Below, piece by piece: positions 3,251 to 53,555 of a stretch of 64,000 nt of DNA; position 1 is the stretch's first letter, and the number at the start of each line of letters is the position of its first letter. Where the stretch lies: assembly GCA_040388415.1 (NCBI GenBank), contig JAZKBV010000004.1:24069-88068 (forward strand), in the 5' to 3' direction. The position numbers and the translations under genes are program-made. This stretch comes from Patescibacteria group bacterium (GTDB lineage: Bacteria > Patescibacteriota > Minisyncoccia > Phycocordibacterales > PALSA-1337). Under the pieces are notes generated by a model, which was not told the DNA's origin, did not search any database, and saw only the letters and a list, made by a program, of their open reading frames with translations.

Positions 3251-4150
3251 TTATTTCTCCTCGCTCACAATCGTCACCGCTTTTGCTACTATAGGTAAAA
3301 TATCGTTATAGAAGTTAAGTTCAAGGATAGCGTCGAGCTTGAACCATTTTGCATCAGCGAGTCCCGGTTTCTTAGCGAGAGTGAGCGTCTTGAAATCAGA
3401 CTCGGCGAGATAGTAGTGCACTTGCTTGCGGATCTTGCCGATCTCGGGATCATTGGCGATATATTCATTTTCACCGAGGTCAGCGATGATCTTTACTTCA
3501 AGACCGATCTCTTCCATCACTTTGTTGATAGTACCCTGCTTCGGATCAACTTCCGGTGGAATCTTGCCCTTTGAGAGGGTCCAGTGGCCGAAGACATCAT
3601 AGACGAAGGCCATATAGACATCTGCGCCGTCACGAGCATATACCACTGCACCACCTAAGTGTTGGATTGGCATTTGCTCATAAGGGACTTCAACCTTCTT
3701 TTTCTTTATCGGCTGGGCATCCTTTCCTGGCTCACCGAGCTCTTTGTAAACTGCACCGAGAACGCCGTTGACGAAACGACCGCTTGTCTCACCGCCAAAG
3801 GTCTTTGCAAGCTCGATGGCTTCATTGATAGCTACTTTCGCAGGCACTTCAACGCGATCAGCAAAGAGAAGCTCATAAAGACCGAGACGGAGCACGTTAC
3901 GGTCTATCGGTGAGATCTTGTCGATAGGCCACTCAGGCGCTGCCTTTGAGATGATGTCATCGAGCTCACTATGTTTAGCGAGGATACCCTTCATAAGCTC
4001 ATCCATGAATGAAACATCGGCTACCCCGGGAGCGAACTCTTTTGCATCGCGCTCTATGATAACAGATGAGGTTGCATCTTTTTTGCCACAAAAATCCCAC
4101 TCAAAAAGTGCCTGGAGGACAACTGAGCGAGATAAATGTCTATTTGCCAT
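3251..4150 (-). CDS. nusB: NusB-family antitermination domain fused to a C-terminal Nudix-like domain (degenerate Nudix box)
   Basis: The N-terminus has RSVVLQALFEWDF...DRNVLRLGLYEL...VPAKVAINEAIELAKTFGGETSGRFVNGVLG, which is typical NusB. The C-terminal 150 aa reads GAVVYARDG...GHWTLSKGKIPPEVDPKQGTINKVMEEIGLEV, matching Gx5Ex7REUxEExGU only at the EExGU positions. Confidence 0.75.
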   Translation of the reverse strand: MANRHLSRSVVLQALFEWDFCGKKDATSSVIIERDAKEFAPGVADVSFMDELMKGILAKHSELDDIISKAAPEWPIDKISPIDRNVLRLGLYELLFADRVEVPAKVAINEAIELAKTFGGETSGRFVNGVLGAVYKELGEPGKDAQPIKKKKVEVPYEQMPIQHLGGAVVYARDGADVYMAFVYDVFGHWTLSKGKIPPEVDPKQGTINKVMEEIGLEVKIIADLGENEYIANDPEIGKIRKQVHYYLAESDFKTLTLAKKPGLADAKWFKLDAILELNFYNDILPIVAKAVTIVSEEK

Positions 4151-23391: not shown

Positions 23392-24963
23392 TTAGTCAAT
23401 CAAGGGTAACATGATCATAAACGTCGTTCCCTTGCCTTCCCCACCTGATTCAACGGTTATTTTGCCACGATGACGCTCGATGATATGTTTTGAAAGATAC
23501 AAGCCGATACCCATGCCTTCAGTATCTGCCTTTCTTCCATTTTCCGCACGATAAAACTTAGTGAATATATATTTTATCTCCTCTTTTGGAATACCAATGC
23601 CCGTATCGCTGATGCGTATCGTCAGTCTATTTCCTTTAAATCTGCCACTACTGCTTTCTACAGCGACCGTAACTTTCCCGCCAGCGGGAGTGTAGCTCAA
23701 CGCATTATCCATGAGCGTCTGAAAGACGAATTTTATCTTTTGTTCATCACCAAAAACATAGAAAGGCAGCTGCTGTTTATATACGATATCGATATTCTTC
23801 GCGGAAGACTTTTTTATTGTTTCTTCCACGCATTTATTGAGCAACAAGCCAACATCAATATTTGTAAATATATATTCATAACTCTTATCATCTGAACCGG
23901 ATAGATTTGAGAGCAGCGTCGTAAGCTCAACGAGACGTTCATTTGCTACTTCGATGTCCTGCAGATCATCTTTAATATTTTCGGGAGCTATTTCCTTGAG
24001 ATTCTCTGTTATCCACTTGATAGACGTGAGTGGCGTGCGGAATTTATGTGTCACCACATTCATGAACTCATACTTGAGCACATCTGCTTCACGTGCCTTA
24101 TTCCAGATCAATGAAACTGCCAAAGCAGTGAGACATGCCAAGATAATTGACGCAACCCAGTTAGGAAAATTTGGGTACATGGCTATCATGACTGTATTGA
24201 AATAATTCAGTCCGCTCAACATGAGACCAATGAACGCTGCTACAACCGCGTATACCAGAGCTTTTTTTGCCACCACAGATATGCTCATCAGTTCGTACTG
24301 CAAAGCCGCGTAGGTATACGGGATGACCGAAAGCGGAACGAAGAGAAAACCGATGAGTGGATCAATCGGAATATCATATATCAATAAGAAATCGATCGAA
24401 CCAATGGTATAGCCGAAAAAGAGAGCAAGAAAGAAGTACTTTATTCTGTTTTTCTCGATGCCGTTTGAGATGGCATACACCCCCCTCATCCATACCAAGA
24501 AATACACTGTAAGGAGGAAAAAGAATAGGAGCATGACCCAGTAGTAAGGTCCGGGAACATAATAATTTGGGAAATAGAGCTTGGGCATTGACGTGAGCAG
24601 AAACAAACTTGGCTTGATGATAAATATCGTAGCCATAGCAATAGCGATGCTATAGCACACGATGAGGACTTTTCTCTGGCTACGATTTTTTTCAAGGAGC
24701 GCGAATACAGAATGAGCGCTGAACAACGGTAAAAAGATGTCCACAAGATTGAACATCAGTATCTTGCGAGACAATTCACCATCCTGAACCATGACACCGA
24801 GAGCATGCGACACAACAAAGATGATGACACATACCCACGTCATGATGAGCGTGTATTTTGAAGCGCCTGGCTTTGCTTTGAAAGCAATCAGGCCTATGAG
24901 AAATACTACAAGGAGCACATCGATCGAGTACGCGACAGTGTGAAGCAAGAGATGAATATTCAT
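23392..24963 (-). CDS. Multi-TM sensor histidine kinase (orphan, no adjacent response regulator)
   Basis: About 8 N-terminal TM helices. HisKA H-box THKFRTPLTSIKW. HATPase_c boxes include ISDTGIGIP and GMGIGLYLSK. Confidence 0.8.
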   Translation of the reverse strand: MNIHLLLHTVAYSIDVLLVVFLIGLIAFKAKPGASKYTLIMTWVCVIIFVVSHALGVMVQDGELSRKILMFNLVDIFLPLFSAHSVFALLEKNRSQRKVLIVCYSIAIAMATIFIIKPSLFLLTSMPKLYFPNYYVPGPYYWVMLLFFFLLTVYFLVWMRGVYAISNGIEKNRIKYFFLALFFGYTIGSIDFLLIYDIPIDPLIGFLFVPLSVIPYTYAALQYELMSISVVAKKALVYAVVAAFIGLMLSGLNYFNTVMIAMYPNFPNWVASIILACLTALAVSLIWNKAREADVLKYEFMNVVTHKFRTPLTSIKWITENLKEIAPENIKDDLQDIEVANERLVELTTLLSNLSGSDDKSYEYIFTNIDVGLLLNKCVEETIKKSSAKNIDIVYKQQLPFYVFGDEQKIKFVFQTLMDNALSYTPAGGKVTVAVESSSGRFKGNRLTIRISDTGIGIPKEEIKYIFTKFYRAENGRKADTEGMGIGLYLSKHIIERHRGKITVESGGEGKGTTFMIMLPLID

Positions 24964-48938: not shown

Positions 48939-50267
48939 CTAGTTCTCCTTCCTTTCAATCTTTGCTCCCAGCATTTGCAAGCGGTATTCCAACTTCTCAT
49001 ACCCCCTATCTATAAGATGAATGTTGGTGATAGTGAACTGACCTTTACCCGCAAGCGCTGCCATAACCACCGCAAATCCGGCACGGATATCGCGCGCCTC
49101 AAGAGTAGATCCTTCTGGCTGTGCTTTGAATGCTGTTGGGCCATTGATGCTGATCTCGCGCGGATTGAGGAATGAGATGCCTGCACCGATCGTATTTAGA
49201 TCTTCCACATACTTGTAGCGTCCCTCATAAATAGTTTCAAAAACTTTACTCTTGCCATTTGTCTGCGTGAGATATGTTACGAGTGGCGCTTGCAAATCGG
49301 TTGGAAAACCGGGGTACTCATGCGTGCGAATATCGGCGACAGAACTAAGCAGAGATGTTGGCGCAACATTATTTACGATTTTAATTGTGGTTGGCTCAAT
49401 AACAAGTGGCACGCCAGAATCGCGGAGTAGATTGATGAGCGACTCAACATGCTTTGGTTCACAGTCAGTGATAGACATATCTTGCGCGCACAATGCCCCG
49501 AGCAACAGATAACTACCCGTTTCGATACGATCCGGAATGGTCACATACGGATGCTTCTTCGCTGAGAGGAGTTTGCCCCCAGTGCCCGTGATCTCGATCG
49601 TCGGTGTACCAACGCCACGAATATCTGCACCACAAGCATTGAGCCACTCGGCAACATTGACGATCTCTGGTTCCATAGCACAATTTTTGAGGATAGTCGT
49701 ACCGCTACTGAGCACCGCTGCCATCATAAGCGTTTCGGTGCCGCCGACGGTTTGTTTATTAAAAAATATCTCTGTCTCATGAAGCTTGTTCGGTGCAGTT
49801 ATATAATATGAGTTCTTATCTTCATCAATCTTGGCGCCCATCTTTTTGTAACCATCGATGAAAAGGTCGATCGGGCGTGCGCCGATGACGCAACCTCCTG
49901 GTGTTGGGAATGAGACTTTGTTGTAACGCGCAAGCAAAGGACCCGTGAGCACAACTGATGCGCGCATACTGCCAGCGAGGTTTGGATCGATATCTGTCGA
50001 GGCAATACGAGCCACCTCTATCTTGAGTGATAGTTCGCCGTCAGTGAATATGCGCTCAACTGTTGCACCAAGCTTAGTGAGTATCGTGCCCATGGTCAGT
50101 ACATCAGCATTATCAGGGATATTTTCGAGCATGACAGGACCGTCAAAGAGGATCGCTGCTGCCATAGCTTTGAGCGCGGCATTCTTTGCCCCTTGGATAG
50201 AGACTGAACCTGTGAGCATCTTTTCGCCAGCAAGACCGGTGATGTGGAAGGATTGTTTTGGATTCAT
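48939..50267 (-). CDS. murA: UDP-N-acetylglucosamine 1-carboxyvinyltransferase
   Basis: MNPKQSFHITG...GAKNAALK and the EPSP-synthase-fold repeats. 442 aa. Confidence 0.9.
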   Translation of the reverse strand: MNPKQSFHITGLAGEKMLTGSVSIQGAKNAALKAMAAAILFDGPVMLENIPDNADVLTMGTILTKLGATVERIFTDGELSLKIEVARIASTDIDPNLAGSMRASVVLTGPLLARYNKVSFPTPGGCVIGARPIDLFIDGYKKMGAKIDEDKNSYYITAPNKLHETEIFFNKQTVGGTETLMMAAVLSSGTTILKNCAMEPEIVNVAEWLNACGADIRGVGTPTIEITGTGGKLLSAKKHPYVTIPDRIETGSYLLLGALCAQDMSITDCEPKHVESLINLLRDSGVPLVIEPTTIKIVNNVAPTSLLSSVADIRTHEYPGFPTDLQAPLVTYLTQTNGKSKVFETIYEGRYKYVEDLNTIGAGISFLNPREISINGPTAFKAQPEGSTLEARDIRAGFAVVMAALAGKGQFTITNIHLIDRGYEKLEYRLQMLGAKIERKEN

Positions 50268-50291
50268 GGAAAGTATTAATATCGAGCGTCC

Positions 50292-50837
50292 CTACATTCT
50301 AGACGAAATTGTAAGTCTTGGGAAATAACGGTCGCCGAAAAAGTTTGACAAAATTCTTTGGTTTTCTATACTATAAGTACGTGAAGAGGTTCTTATCTTC
50401 ACGACATTGGCTTCGGCCTCCAAGGACCCCACAATTGTGGGGTCTGTTACATTTATGAGAAGGCTACAGACACAACCAACAACAGTATTAAAATCAGTGA
50501 CAGACATTACCCCGATCTTTTTACCGAGACGACGACTATCGAAAGATCTCACGTGAAGCAGTAGTAGGTCCGTTTTTCTTCCCCTTAGAACATAATGAAA
50601 CCTGAATTGTTCCTCGCTGATCGTCGTAGTGAATGGTACCCCTAAAAATATCGTCTGAGTGAATTTCTTGAGGACTAAGATTGGCCTGCTAAAATCACCT
50701 GAATAAGAATCCTGTTCTGATCCGATATTTACACCTATTTTGCACCACCAAATCTCACGTTCATGAAAATTAACCGGACGACGTTCGTTGTTGATGATCT
50801 TTTTGTATTCATTCCATGTATCAAAATCTTTTGGCAT
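50292..50837 (-). CDS. MazF/PemK-family endoribonuclease toxin-like protein with N- and C-terminal extensions, no adjacent antitoxin gene
   Basis: REIWWCKIGVNIGSEQDSYSGDFSRPILVL...GVPFTTT...HVRSFDSRRLGKKIGVMSVTDFNTVVGCVCSLLI aligns with MazF (GDLIWVDFDPTKGSEQ...RPAVVLS...VPCTT...IRS.D.R...). A TTGTAA-N16-TAAAAT promoter ends 6 nt before the ATG, so the mRNA looks leaderless. Confidence 0.6.
   Translation of the reverse strand: MPKDFDTWNEYKKIINNERRPVNFHEREIWWCKIGVNIGSEQDSYSGDFSRPILVLKKFTQTIFLGVPFTTTISEEQFRFHYVLRGRKTDLLLLHVRSFDSRRLGKKIGVMSVTDFNTVVGCVCSLLINVTDPTIVGSLEAEANVVKIRTSSRTYSIENQRILSNFFGDRYFPRLTISSRM
50344..50443 (+). promoter_or_regulatory. Convergent sigma70 promoter (TTGACA-N16-TATACT) plus three consecutive hairpins, antisense to the 3' part of the mazF-like ORF
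   Basis: -35 at 50344-50349 and -10 at 50366-50371. Hairpins: GTGAAGAggttcttATCTTCAC (50380-50402), GGCttcgGCC (50408-50417), and the perfect palindrome GACCCCACAATTGTGGGGTC (50424-50443). Confidence 0.5.
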
Positions 50838-50871
50838 CCAGATATTTTATTCTTCTGGGAGGAAATTTACA

Positions 50872-50913
50872 AATAAAAAAACAGTCCGCGTCTCAACATG
50901 AGAAACGGACTGT
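50872..50913 (-). terminator. Intrinsic terminator after the 157-aa gene (minus strand)
   Basis: On the minus strand, ACAGTCCGTTTCTCATGTTGAGACGCGGACTGT is followed by TTTTTTTATTT. Confidence 0.75.
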
Positions 50914-50932
50914 TGTGATTGAAGACCACTGA

Positions 50933-51406
50933 TCAATGTTTTGATTTACTGTGGACCCACACATTGTCACCAAAGAAAACTTGTAGTGGAGTTCCATTGC
51001 TTGATCCACTCATCGCTAAAAAGTTTACTGAAACATGAAAGAATGGGACCCTGGGTGATTTTTTCGAGAAGAAATTCACACTTAAGCGAAGAGTTCTCGA
51101 TTGCACACCCGGAAATTCCACACTACTTTCAAAAACCATTGACTGTTCAAGTCTGCAGGCTTTTTGTGCTGCCTCACGGAATTCATAGTATGAGGTTTCA
51201 TCGCCCTTTTTATCTGGGACCCAATCGTTACAAAGAATTTGATCAATCTCAAACTTGGTAAAAATAAATGAGCAGGCATTTGTTCTTGATGAAACATGTT
51301 CTGCGTGAACGCAAAATTTATTTCCAACTTCTTTGGCTGATAACCAAACTGCATGATCATCAGCAGACGTGACTGATGGATTGAACCGCGTTATTTTTCG
51401 TATCAT
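50933..51406 (-). CDS. Hypothetical protein
   Basis: An AAAAGGAGAA RBS 7 nt upstream of the ATG. 157 aa with no recognisable domain. Confidence 0.5.
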   Translation of the reverse strand: MIRKITRFNPSVTSADDHAVWLSAKEVGNKFCVHAEHVSSRTNACSFIFTKFEIDQILCNDWVPDKKGDETSYYEFREAAQKACRLEQSMVFESSVEFPGVQSRTLRLSVNFFSKKSPRVPFFHVSVNFLAMSGSSNGTPLQVFFGDNVWVHSKSKH

Positions 51407-51569
51407 AATGATTCTCCTTTTGGGAATGGCTCATGTGTAGGGCCATATGGTTTTATTTCAACACGGCTTCCATAAAATGGGGCCGATAACTACTCGGGTA
51501 CAATTATACCACCATAAATACCATTCTGTCAATCCTCCCTCAACCCTTAAAATAAGCTATATTCAAGCC

Positions 51570-53555
51570 ATGAACCTGATAACCGTCATTCCGCTCACCC
51601 GTCAGAAAGTGGCTCCAACACTTTCGTATTTTACCTCGTCGGTTGTACCGGTTGGCGCTATCGTGACCGTCCCCCTCCGTTCAAAGACGATCAGTGCTAT
51701 CGTCTCAGACTCGCGTCCTGTGGCAGACGTCAAAGCAGACGTGAAAAGCGCGCCGTTCGAAATACGCAAGTTGGGCGCCGTCAAAGCCATCGCCTTCTTC
51801 CCTCCTTCATTCATCGAAGCATGTCGTTCGCTCGCCCTTCACTATGCCACTACTACAGGCAGCATCATCGACGCAATCATTCCTGACATCTTGATGGAAA
51901 ATGCACACAAGATCACTCCCCCCAACTCCGCACTCCCAACTTCTATCTCCAATGCGATACCTAACGAAGTCTACGTAGTCCAAGGCGACGATGCTGACCG
52001 CTTTAGCACGTGGCGCAGTCTGATCCGTCAGGAGTTCGCACGAAAAAAATCGGTTGTCTTTCATACGCCTACAATCGAAGATGCAAAGAACATGTTCAAA
52101 CTCCTCGAAAAAGGCATTGAGGGATATATTTTTATTCTTCATAACAAGCTCGCCAAAAAAGAAATCATCGAAACATGGGAGCTGATCGCAAAAACAGATC
52201 ATGCAGTGGCTATTATTACTGCCGGCATATTCCCCCTTCTTCCTCGCAACGATATCTCATCGGTCGTCATTGAGAGAGAAAACGGCCGTGGCTGGATATC
52301 ACCAAAGATGCCATACATGGACTTGCGCAAAGCGTTCGAGATCATCAACAAGCTCGCGCCCGGCAGAAATATATATCTTGCTGATAGTCTGCTCCGTAAC
52401 GAGACACTTCATCGTCTCGATCGTAACGAAATCTCACAGGGTTCACCATTCAAGTGGCGCTCCATCTCTACCGCCATTGATACACTCATCAATATGGTGC
52501 CGGAGAGGTCACAAGAGATAAGAGATAAGAGCTTGGAGGTAAGAAAAGACACAGAAACTATAGATGCTGACTCTAAGCTCCTAGCTCCTAGCTCCAATCT
52601 CTCTTTTCGTATCCTCTCTCCAGAGCTCGAGCGTTTGATCACCACAAATCGGGATGAGAATAGTCACCTCTTCATCTATGCGGTACGTAGAGGCCTCGCC
52701 ACCATGACAGTCTGTAGCGACTGTGAGACCATCGTAACGTGTGCCTCATGCTCATCACCGGTGGTCCTGCATGCATCAAAAGAAACGGGCAGAAACTTCT
52801 TCATGTGCCACGTCTGCGGTATTCGTCGCAGTGCCGATGAGGTCTGTCGCGTATGCGGAGGCTGGAGACTAACCGCGCTCGGCATCGGCCTCGATCGCGT
52901 CGAACAAGAGATCAAAGCAAAGTACCCGAACATCGACGTATACAAGATAGACGCCGATATCACCAAGACAGACAAACAGATCGCTGCAACGCTCGATAAG
53001 TTCCGTTCAAAACCGGGCAGTATATTACTTGGTACAGAAATCGCATCTTTGCACTTACATGAAACTGTTGATCATTGCGCTATCGTATCACTAGATTCAT
53101 TATTTGCTCTCCCTGACTTCCGCATACCGGAAAAGATAATGTATACGCTCATCCGCCTGCGCACGCTTGCCAGCCGTTCGATACTCGTACAGACGCGCCG
53201 TATAGAAGAAAAAGTATTCGAGTATGGCCTCAAAGGAAACTTGAGCGACTTTCATCGTGAGACTATCAGTGAGCGTCGCCGTTTTGGATATCCGCCATTT
53301 ATGACGCTCATCAAGATTAGTATTGAGGGTAAAAAGGATTCTATTGCAGAACAGATGGCTGACATTCAGAAAATCATTGAGCCTTATGAAATAGACATAT
53401 TTCCTGCATTCACTGGCGCTGCGCGAGGCAACTCCATCATCCACGGGCTCCTCAAATTACCACCTGAAATGTGGCCGAACATTGAGCTTGCCGAAAAGCT
53501 TCGCAATCTTCCTCAAAATGTCAGCGTGAAAGTCGATCCGGAGAGCTTGTTGTAG
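51570..53555 (+). CDS. priA: Primosomal protein N' (PriA)-like, helicase Walker A motif absent
   Basis: N-terminal 3'-DNA-binding-like region (VIPLTRQKV...VPVGAIVTVPL). A C-terminal Cys-rich zinc-binding region (CSDCETIVTCASCSSPVV...CHVCGIRRSADEVCRVCGG). A GSGKT/S P-loop was not found where expected (YVVQGDDADRFSTW). Confidence 0.7.
   Translation: MNLITVIPLTRQKVAPTLSYFTSSVVPVGAIVTVPLRSKTISAIVSDSRPVADVKADVKSAPFEIRKLGAVKAIAFFPPSFIEACRSLALHYATTTGSIIDAIIPDILMENAHKITPPNSALPTSISNAIPNEVYVVQGDDADRFSTWRSLIRQEFARKKSVVFHTPTIEDAKNMFKLLEKGIEGYIFILHNKLAKKEIIETWELIAKTDHAVAIITAGIFPLLPRNDISSVVIERENGRGWISPKMPYMDLRKAFEIINKLAPGRNIYLADSLLRNETLHRLDRNEISQGSPFKWRSISTAIDTLINMVPERSQEIRDKSLEVRKDTETIDADSKLLAPSSNLSFRILSPELERLITTNRDENSHLFIYAVRRGLATMTVCSDCETIVTCASCSSPVVLHASKETGRNFFMCHVCGIRRSADEVCRVCGGWRLTALGIGLDRVEQEIKAKYPNIDVYKIDADITKTDKQIAATLDKFRSKPGSILLGTEIASLHLHETVDHCAIVSLDSLFALPDFRIPEKIMYTLIRLRTLASRSILVQTRRIEEKVFEYGLKGNLSDFHRETISERRRFGYPPFMTLIKISIEGKKDSIAEQMADIQKIIEPYEIDIFPAFTGAARGNSIIHGLLKLPPEMWPNIELAEKLRNLPQNVSVKVDPESLL

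Follow-up and report, generated by a model that had tools for sequence, protein, structure and literature searches.

Toxins of the MazF/PemK family are the textbook toxins of type II systems, and their usual counterpart is a neutralising protein of the MazE type; MazF genes that stand 'solitary' are a recurring puzzle. What could serve as the antidote of such a gene? The question is raised by a stretch of 64,000 nucleotides from a Patescibacteria group bacterium (GenBank assembly GCA_040388415.1, contig JAZKBV010000004.1, forward-strand positions 24,069 to 88,068; here called the window and numbered from its first letter), which carries a MazF/PemK-like toxin gene and, running against the 3' part of that gene on the other strand, a predicted small-RNA gene. 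From comparative sequence analysis we consider it rather likely that the locus is a two-gene module in which the small RNA replaces the MazE-type protein as antitoxin, most likely as a type I-like cis-antisense regulator.

The toxin gene and the search for a protein partner

The toxin gene (50292..50837, minus strand, with its stop codon TAG at 50292-50294) was delimited from the open reading frame (ORF) list, Pfam and its orthologues. It encodes a 181-aa protein that is 100% identical to an NCBI protein of a Patescibacteria metagenome-assembled genome. Residues 27-125 (50463..50759, minus strand) match the Pfam family PemK_toxin (PF02452) over profile positions 3-107 of 109 with 34 bits and E = 3.7e-8, the curated cut-off being 23.1 bits, and the motifs GSEQ, RPILVL, VPFTT and VRSFDSRR are all present, which bears out the MazF/PemK-like assignment made in an initial annotation from the sequence alone. 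Among 25 aligned homologues (alignment A1) R51 and P52 never vary and T70 reaches at least 90% conservation; on alignment with S. aureus MazF (4of1/4mzm), R51-P52 and T70 fall on the catalytic Arg and Thr, which lie there within VRPVV and AITG. The solved structures nearest to the subfamily profile are the MazF proteins of S. aureus and B. subtilis (EndoA) and the PemK of B. anthracis, with E = 5e-5 to 1e-4. Scans with PADLOC and NCBIfam gave no match for the toxin. The protein is predicted to be an endoribonuclease of the MazF/PemK family and to be toxic.

Extensions flank this domain on both sides, as had been annotated, although neither is quite as first described. The N-terminal one (aa 1-26, MPKDFDTWNEYKK..., 50760..50837, minus strand), of about 25 aa, is not peculiar to the window's gene and is conserved subfamily-wide: K3, F5, W8 and N9 of a KDFDxWN motif are at least 90% conserved in alignment A1, and matches to the subfamily in the representative library begin at residues 1-3. 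The C-terminal one measures about 55 aa (126-181) rather than about 36, and its long form is kept only in the window's clade. At E <= 1e-10 the subfamily amounts to about 1000 clusters of 50% identity, counted by their representatives; its basic protein has about 127 aa, with ORF tails that differ between clades, and ten homologues of 181-187 aa cover the full length of the query.

At the locus itself no antitoxin partner could be found, in agreement with the initial annotation. Neither the window nor 80 related loci hold an upstream operonic gene of the MazE, PemI, AbrB or RHH type. We clustered every ORF of 40 aa or more that lies up to 700 nt from one of 81 toxin genes; no protein family was common to more than six of the 81 loci, and those that were shared comprised murA/priA synteny within a clade and shadow ORFs. 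A type II module with an adjacent antitoxin was considered and rejected, because the only upstream candidate, a 157-aa ORF (50933-51406, minus strand), has no Pfam, NCBIfam or PADLOC family and is split off from the toxin gene by an intrinsic terminator and by the toxin's own promoter. The terminator (50873..50914, minus strand; stem 50880-50914 followed by U7) folds with -28.5 kcal/mol and z = -4.7, a value equalled in none of 200 shuffles, so the earlier view of a strong terminator behind a gene unrelated to MazE stands. As an antitoxin the 157-aa ORF is further ruled out by being missing from orthologous loci in which priA flanks the toxin directly. These are L084, L085 and L088, where no ORF of that size is seen, and the 157-aa ORF is therefore an apparent lineage-specific insertion. 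It has a 12/12 promoter of its own, TTGACA-18-TATAAT with an extended TG (51503-51532, minus strand).

The toxin promoter, TTGTAA-17-TAAAAT (50844..50872, minus strand), scored 9/12 in the promoter scan. Because its -10 box ends only 6 nt 5' of the ATG, the toxin mRNA is probably leaderless, as had been proposed. The same layout is found in L001, L002, L004 and many other loci and is clear in the window's clade. As a rule for the whole family a leaderless mRNA was dropped, the enrichment being too modest: a good -10 box 4-8 nt 5' of the ATG precedes 22 of 75 family toxin genes, against 15% of control ORFs.

The sole neighbours that recur outside clade synteny are NYN/LabA-type (PIN-like) RNase-like proteins, recognised by eye (FIDGANLY...SGDGDY) beside the module in five unrelated loci (L009 3417-3797 and 4633-5181; L014 2713-3384; L018 17-547; L074 4837-5124; L077 1603-2103).

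The convergent small-RNA gene and its linkage to the toxin

Opposite the 3' part of the toxin gene stands the promoter TTGACA-16-TATACT (50345..50372, plus strand), which the initial annotation had recognised with coordinates one base off (50344-50371). It scores 11/12 in the promoter scan, higher than the toxin's 9/12, and its -35 box is the reverse complement of toxin codons L163-S164-N165. The arrangement TTGACA-16-TA(T/A)ACT is kept in 11/11 long-form orthologues, the clade that comprises the window, L001-L004 and L083-L088. From this promoter an antisense small RNA of about 77 nt (50379..50455, plus strand) is predicted to be transcribed, its start being placed 7 nt after the -10 box and its 3' end after a terminator hairpin and a weak U-tract.

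The RNA folds with -33.5 kcal/mol and z = -4.0 (1 of 200 shuffles was equally good), and the fold confirms the three hairpins of the initial annotation, including a UUCG stem and a 20-nt palindrome. A 5' hairpin (50377..50405, plus strand) is confined to the long-form clade, in which it folds in all 11 orthologues. It is followed by single-stranded GACAUU and by hairpin 1, GGC-UUCG-GCC (GGCUUCGGCC; 50409..50418, plus strand), the family-wide 'head' of the RNA. The terminator hairpin (50424..50445, plus strand), found by the terminator scan and by covariation, holds the perfect 20-nt palindrome (50425-50444), which occurs once in the window against 0 expected. That the hairpins form part of a dispersed repeat or tandem array was ruled out, since the window has no second copy of the palindrome and 49900-51500 is free of tandem repeats. 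Rfam 15, its pemK model RF02913 included, has no relevant family in the window at 49800-51600 (E <= 10) or in eight related loci (E <= 1); this permissive scan returned tRNAs and chance matches only.

What this RNA is became clearer from 80 genome loci with relatives of the toxin, mostly in Patescibacteria and also in Rickettsiales, other Proteobacteria, Deinococcota and Chloroflexota. At the protein level the toxin tails look unlike one another (...KTDPxxxGxSEAEANV, ...KTDPLRGPQVPNGNL, ...ETPPVKAGNLGGRSH), whereas at the DNA level they are a single element, variously read. In reverse complement this element runs TTGAC, 17 nt, TAnnnT, 6 nt, ACAAAU, a short hairpin (GGC-UUCG-GCC or a compensated variant), CCGAG, a GC-rich hairpin and a U-tract. 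Read in the toxin frame, the U-tract of the RNA terminator gives the 'K-T' codons, and the RNA start and the toxin stop codon coincide in many loci. Its layout indicates that the family element is a small-RNA gene convergent with the toxin gene.

Base pairing in the RNA is marked by compensatory change. In a model-fitted alignment both sides change in 7 of the 8 pairs of the terminator helix; both-side changes fill 71 cells as against 23 in shuffles, the observed covariation score was reached by 0 of 500 shuffles, and slid controls collapse. Hairpin 1 occurs across loci as the compensatory stem variants GGC/GCC, GCC/GGC and CCC/GGG. Of 40 loci, 28 begin the RNA with the six nucleotides ACAAAT and 8 with ACACAT. 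The last hairpin makes a good terminator in most loci. Inspection of L022 by eye suggested that three-hairpin members might have a bidirectional terminator, an idea that was discarded after the scan called a terminator on the RNA strand only.

A covariance model of the two-hairpin form of the RNA (R1) matches more than 40 of the 80 toxin loci, and each match next to a toxin gene is antisense to it and at the toxin 3' end. Its sole match within the window lies at 50401-50460 (plus strand; 57.2 bits, E = 5e-13). With a second detector, a profile of the promoter and RNA 5' end used at E < 0.05, about 66 of the 80 loci were recovered. Here too each match at the toxin 3' end is antisense, and its hairpin 1 stops 7-49 nt after the toxin stop codon or within the tail of the coding sequence (CDS). 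The TTGAC -35 box stands at the equivalent place in about 66 of the 80, and the few remaining loci carry divergent versions of the element, as judged by eye. Extra matches of the profile were mostly at second, tandem toxin genes, each with its own RNA. Such second modules were noted at L009 5321-5773, L049 4602-4985 and L014 about 1218-1652, with diverged toxins (PREVWWC, RRWVWMC) and their own antisense RNA at the 3' side.

We also searched in reverse, scanning a 23-nt RNA motif against metagenomes, which gave 38 contigs. A convergent MazF-like ORF is present in 33 of them, with its stop codon at most 120 nt from the RNA start in 30; some of these toxin ORFs are truncated or frameshifted (L100, L112, L126). 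Among the other five, one contig ends 88 nt beyond the RNA, leaving no room for a gene, and four have an intact RNA gene with a toxin that is truncated, internally deleted or absent. An intact RNA gene, complete with promoter, head and terminator, is thus accompanied by a truncated, deleted, frameshifted or absent toxin in contigs L099, L100, L113, L119, L123 and L126, and an RNA kept beside a decayed toxin is the pattern expected of an antitoxin. A second RNA-like element was seen in L024 (3939-3996, minus strand; profile E = 0.0025) just upstream of the toxin start and without a toxin of its own; it lies downstream of a 349-aa ORF that ends at 3909 and is pheS-like by eye.

Toxin and RNA are conserved as a pair in more than 100 loci of varied genomic context, and we regard it as highly probable that they form a conserved module. 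Could the element serve only as an insulator or terminator between the toxin and downstream genes, its RNA being a functionless by-product? Its position between convergent or tandem transcription units would suit this, as would the good terminator that ends it in most loci. We nevertheless think such a role very unlikely, because the near-consensus promoter, the fixed start context and the covarying hairpin 1 are all conserved as well, the element travels with the toxin into unrelated contexts, tandem toxin copies each have their own RNA, and the element persists after toxin decay.

Overlapping codes in the window's clade

In the clade of the window the 3' part of the toxin ORF wholly contains the RNA gene, which runs on the other strand, and the gene order priA, toxin, murA is conserved. 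The C-terminal extension (aa 126-181; 50292..50462, minus strand) runs through the RNA gene and its promoter up to the -10 box of murA. Around the locus four genes are on the minus strand, namely the 157-aa ORF, the toxin gene, murA (48939-50267) and mreB, and priA is divergent on the plus strand. Only 24 nt separate the toxin gene from murA. The candidate murA promoter, TTCCCA-17-TAGAAT (50296..50324, minus strand; 9/12 in the promoter scan), includes TCTAGAATGTAGG, conserved in L001 and L002; the conserved TAGAAT under the last toxin codons is the probable murA -10 box, and the toxin stop codon TAG lies inside it. The RNA promoter (plus strand) and the candidate murA promoter (minus strand) stand back-to-back at 50296-50372, with their -35 boxes about 20 bp apart. 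This arrangement, together with the toxin stop codon in the murA -10 box, means that toxin transcripts may extend into murA-mreB, and the RNA could also influence such read-through.

All 11 orthologues keep the long ORF of 181-187 aa and the same end at 46-77% identity, and the tail motifs SEAEA and RILSNFFGDRY are better conserved than much of the toxin core (alignment A1). The constraint responsible differs from one part of the ORF to the next. In the MazF core the p-distances at codon positions 1/2/3 are 0.32/0.22/0.62 (dN 0.38, dS 2.39), which indicates constraint at the protein level with dN/dS ~0.16. Opposite the RNA terminator and hairpin 1 they are 0.27/0.28/0.35 (dN 0.33, dS 0.41), as expected for constraint at the RNA level, and the codons GCC GAA GCC opposite hairpin 1 are identical at every codon position in 11/11 orthologues. 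Opposite the clade-specific 5' hairpin the values of 0.51/0.47/0.53 (dN 0.75, dS 0.87) point to no protein-level constraint; despite its divergent sequence this hairpin still folds throughout the clade, with z between -2.9 and -5.8 in ten members and -1.2 in L088. AGTATA and TTGTCAA, which hold the -10 and -35 boxes of the other strand, are almost invariant. The codons of FFGDRY (aa 166-171; 50325..50342, minus strand) sit between the RNA promoter and the murA promoter and again show protein-level purifying selection (0.13/0.06/0.53; dN 0.11, dS 0.92), the Arg being encoded as CGT, CGC, AGA or AGG among orthologues. The substitution pattern indicates that FFGDRY is translated and selected. In this clade the tail of a protein, the RNA gene with its promoter and the promoter of murA are thus packed into one DNA stretch, each under a distinct and measurable selection.

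These data bear on two other explanations of the long ORF. The initial annotation had allowed that the gene might be decaying, and it could equally be mis-called, the tail being an accidental read-through. Most members do have about 127 aa with tails that vary by clade, and read-through fusions occur occasionally: P0014 (274 aa) joins the toxin, by read-through of the RNA gene, to a GatC domain (PF02686), and in L078 (4001-5011) a 375-aa toxin ORF reads through the RNA gene into a C-terminal part that is GNAT acetyltransferase-like by eye. The window's gene, however, shares its frame and end with orthologues as distant as those above, strong purifying selection acts on its core and protein-level selection on FFGDRY, and the catalytic residues are intact. 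We therefore reject decay, and give the pseudogene explanation almost no credence.

The selection on FFGDRY suggests instead that, in the window's clade only, the toxin might be fused to its own inhibitor. The C-terminal extension, and FFGDRY especially, would fold onto the groove of the MazF dimer like a MazE tail and would act alone or alongside the RNA. Protein-level selection is indeed seen on this motif although it lies between two divergent promoters, and the frame stays open over about 55 extra codons in all 11 orthologues. Yet over most of its length the extension answers to RNA and promoter constraint and not to the protein. It is also confined to a single clade, whereas the RNA occurs throughout the family of about 1000 clusters. 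AlphaFold, run on the 25-sequence alignment, produced a poor model (predicted local distance difference test, pLDDT, 55) with no confident fold or docking of the extension (pLDDT 29-52). Self-inhibition of the toxin is in our view improbable.

Mode of action and comparison with known systems

The conserved toxin-RNA pair, the lack of a conserved protein partner, the survival of the RNA after toxin decay and the stronger RNA promoter together form the signature of an antitoxin, and that the RNA is the antitoxin seems to us probable. Its complementarity to the 3' part of the toxin transcript is perfect, by construction, the two being read from opposite strands of the same DNA, and for this reason type I-like antisense action is the simplest reading. 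An antisense regulatory RNA of type I-like arrangement had been proposed initially and is now strongly supported by the conserved convergent RNA gene, its covarying stems and the missing protein partner. Whether antisense pairing is the main activity of the RNA is a closer call, and we place it slightly short of an even chance.

According to this mechanism an abundant small RNA would pair with the 3' region of the toxin mRNA, the complementary stretch in the window's clade being the last ~25 sense codons before the promoter-overlap region. The RNA-mRNA duplex would then be cut, for example by RNase III, or would block ribosomes. In the window's clade, cleavage of the duplex would remove the stop codon together with the last ~55 codons, so that toxin synthesis would be aborted, and convergent transcription would possibly add interference.

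Several points weigh against an RNA antitoxin of the cis-antisense kind. Sequence conservation across phyla covers the first ~20 nt of the RNA (ACAAAU and hairpin 1), also in loci that have them outside the toxin CDS, and such conservation would be superfluous for a purely cis-antisense regulator. In many 127-aa members the RNA and the CDS share no more than a few nucleotides at and near the stop codon, so pairing would rely on a presumed 3' untranslated region of the toxin mRNA. Only a weak U-tract (UGUUACAUUUAU) goes with the terminator in the window's clade, and an antitoxin protein may be encoded beyond the 64-kb window. In the plasmid system that we liken to this module below, the identity of the toxin CjpT with the PemK homologue WP_011117588 is presumed. 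Lastly, we infer the transcription of the RNA, the toxicity of the protein and its neutralisation, including the molecular route, from sequence. A second pairing site, which might have accounted for the conserved head, was not found in the 5' part of the mRNA: heads paired with the toxin mRNA 5' end equally well whether cognate or non-cognate (-14.6 versus -14.7 kcal/mol, p = 0.62), and over the first 115 toxin codons cognate, non-cognate and shuffled heads were alike.

The conserved head could instead mean that the RNA binds the toxin protein, in a type III-like or a hybrid type I/III manner, with its antisense position being secondary. ACA-containing motifs are the recognition sites of many MazF enzymes, and a toxin of MazF-like fold, ToxN, has its own RNA as inhibitor. 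Here the single-stranded ACA(A/C)AU and the tight hairpin would lie as a pseudo-substrate in the RNA groove of MazF. The head is the most conserved part of the module (ACAAAT/ACACAT, with invariant GCC GAA GCC), it is usually outside the toxin CDS and has no target in the toxin mRNA beyond chance, and the ACA stretch is still single-stranded in the window's clade, which adds its 5' hairpin before the head. On the other hand, ACA may be no more than a feature of the sequence around the transcription start, and the RNA is single-copy, without a tandem-repeat array upstream of the toxin. The strictly convergent 3' overlap, moreover, is kept in essentially all loci and would be needless for protein binding alone. 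Protein binding of this type appears unlikely to us.

A combination of both activities we hold to be similarly doubtful. The RNA would then be a hybrid antitoxin, offering an uncleavable recognition motif as pseudo-substrate (type III-like) and also bringing about destruction of the toxin mRNA (type I-like); a pseudo-substrate role is conceivable because in most members ACA(A/C)AU occupies the very start of the RNA (+1) and abuts the rigid UUCG hairpin. If this were true, a MazF subfamily of about 1000 clusters at 50% identity, present in Patescibacteria, Rickettsiales, Campylobacterota and others, would have swapped MazE for an RNA, and in the window's clade one stretch of 170 bp would carry, on its two strands, the RNA gene with its promoter as well as a peptide motif under selection.

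Returning to the RNA as a type I-like antitoxin, a large and widespread MazF subfamily with a convergent RNA and without a conserved protein partner offers a concrete, testable antidote for orphan MazF toxins, and the module blurs the classification into types I, II and III. As judged from sequence, the RNA-antitoxin arrangement around a MazF-family toxin, the small-RNA family, which is undescribed, and the unusual dual-coding overlap all appear to be novel. The RNA family is new to Rfam and common in Patescibacteria (the candidate phyla radiation, CPR), in which, to our knowledge, almost no regulatory RNAs are known. In the open-access literature we found no antisense RNA partner described for a MazF/PemK toxin outside Campylobacter, and the supplements of PMC5737381 and PMC7826846 held nothing on pemK or cjrA.

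How does the module compare with systems already described? With the type II systems MazEF, PemIK and Kis-Kid it shares the toxin fold and catalytic residues; it differs from them in having no antitoxin gene, in the toxin's own, probably leaderless promoter and in the conserved N-terminal extension of ~25 aa. To the type III systems ToxIN, CptIN and TenpIN it would be alike, if the type III-like mode holds, in that an RNase of MazF/Kid-like fold is held by a small structured RNA. Their antitoxin, however, consists of tandem repeats upstream on the same strand, with a terminator between, and is processed by the toxin, whereas here a single convergent RNA without repeats (49900-51500) accompanies a toxin of the PemK family, not of ToxN/AbiQ. 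Another structured RNA candidate tied to pemK genes is the pemK RNA motif (RF02913), ascribed to Weinberg et al. 2017, which is said to be a cis-regulatory element upstream of pemK in Firmicutes, in genes that reportedly have no pemI partner; its covariance model has no match in the window region or in eight related loci.

Closer likeness is found among type I systems whose genes overlap at the 3' end, such as txpA/RatA and bsrG/SR4 of B. subtilis and Fst/RNA II of the par locus of E. faecalis. There too the genes of the toxin mRNA and the antitoxin RNA are convergent, with an overlap of the 3' ends or terminators, the antitoxin has the stronger promoter and no protein antitoxin is present. 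The window's RNA gene, antisense to the toxin gene and equipped with its own promoter and terminator, has the arrangement that defines type I. Those toxins, however, are hydrophobic membrane peptides of less than 60 aa, in keeping with the type I hallmark of a small, hydrophobic, membrane-active toxin, and here the toxin is a soluble RNase of MazF fold with 127-181 aa (181 aa in the window). SymE and RalR are known exceptions to the hydrophobic-peptide rule. Those type I families are also phylogenetically narrow, whereas the 5' sequence of the RNA described here is conserved across several phyla.

The closest precedent is probably CjrA/CjpT of the C. jejuni plasmid pVir. Two articles (PMC10470494, PMC7826846), citing Shen et al. 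2016 (Mol Microbiol 101:909, PMID 27291507), give the antisense small RNA CjrA as the type I antitoxin of the protein toxin CjpT. The only annotated toxin of pVir, the PemK/MazF protein WP_011117588, matches the window's toxin by tblastn with E = 4e-12 and 36% identity over 78% of the query, the N-terminal extension included. The pVir pemK likewise lacks an annotated antitoxin beside it. Immediately downstream, the opposite strand holds a structured region that resembles a terminator, although the profile of the RNA 5' part has no match there (nhmmer, E = 1.4). The two further differ in setting: the pVir system is plasmid-borne and belongs to Campylobacterota, whereas the module of the window is chromosomal, in Patescibacteria, between priA and murA, and has its RNA inside the toxin ORF.

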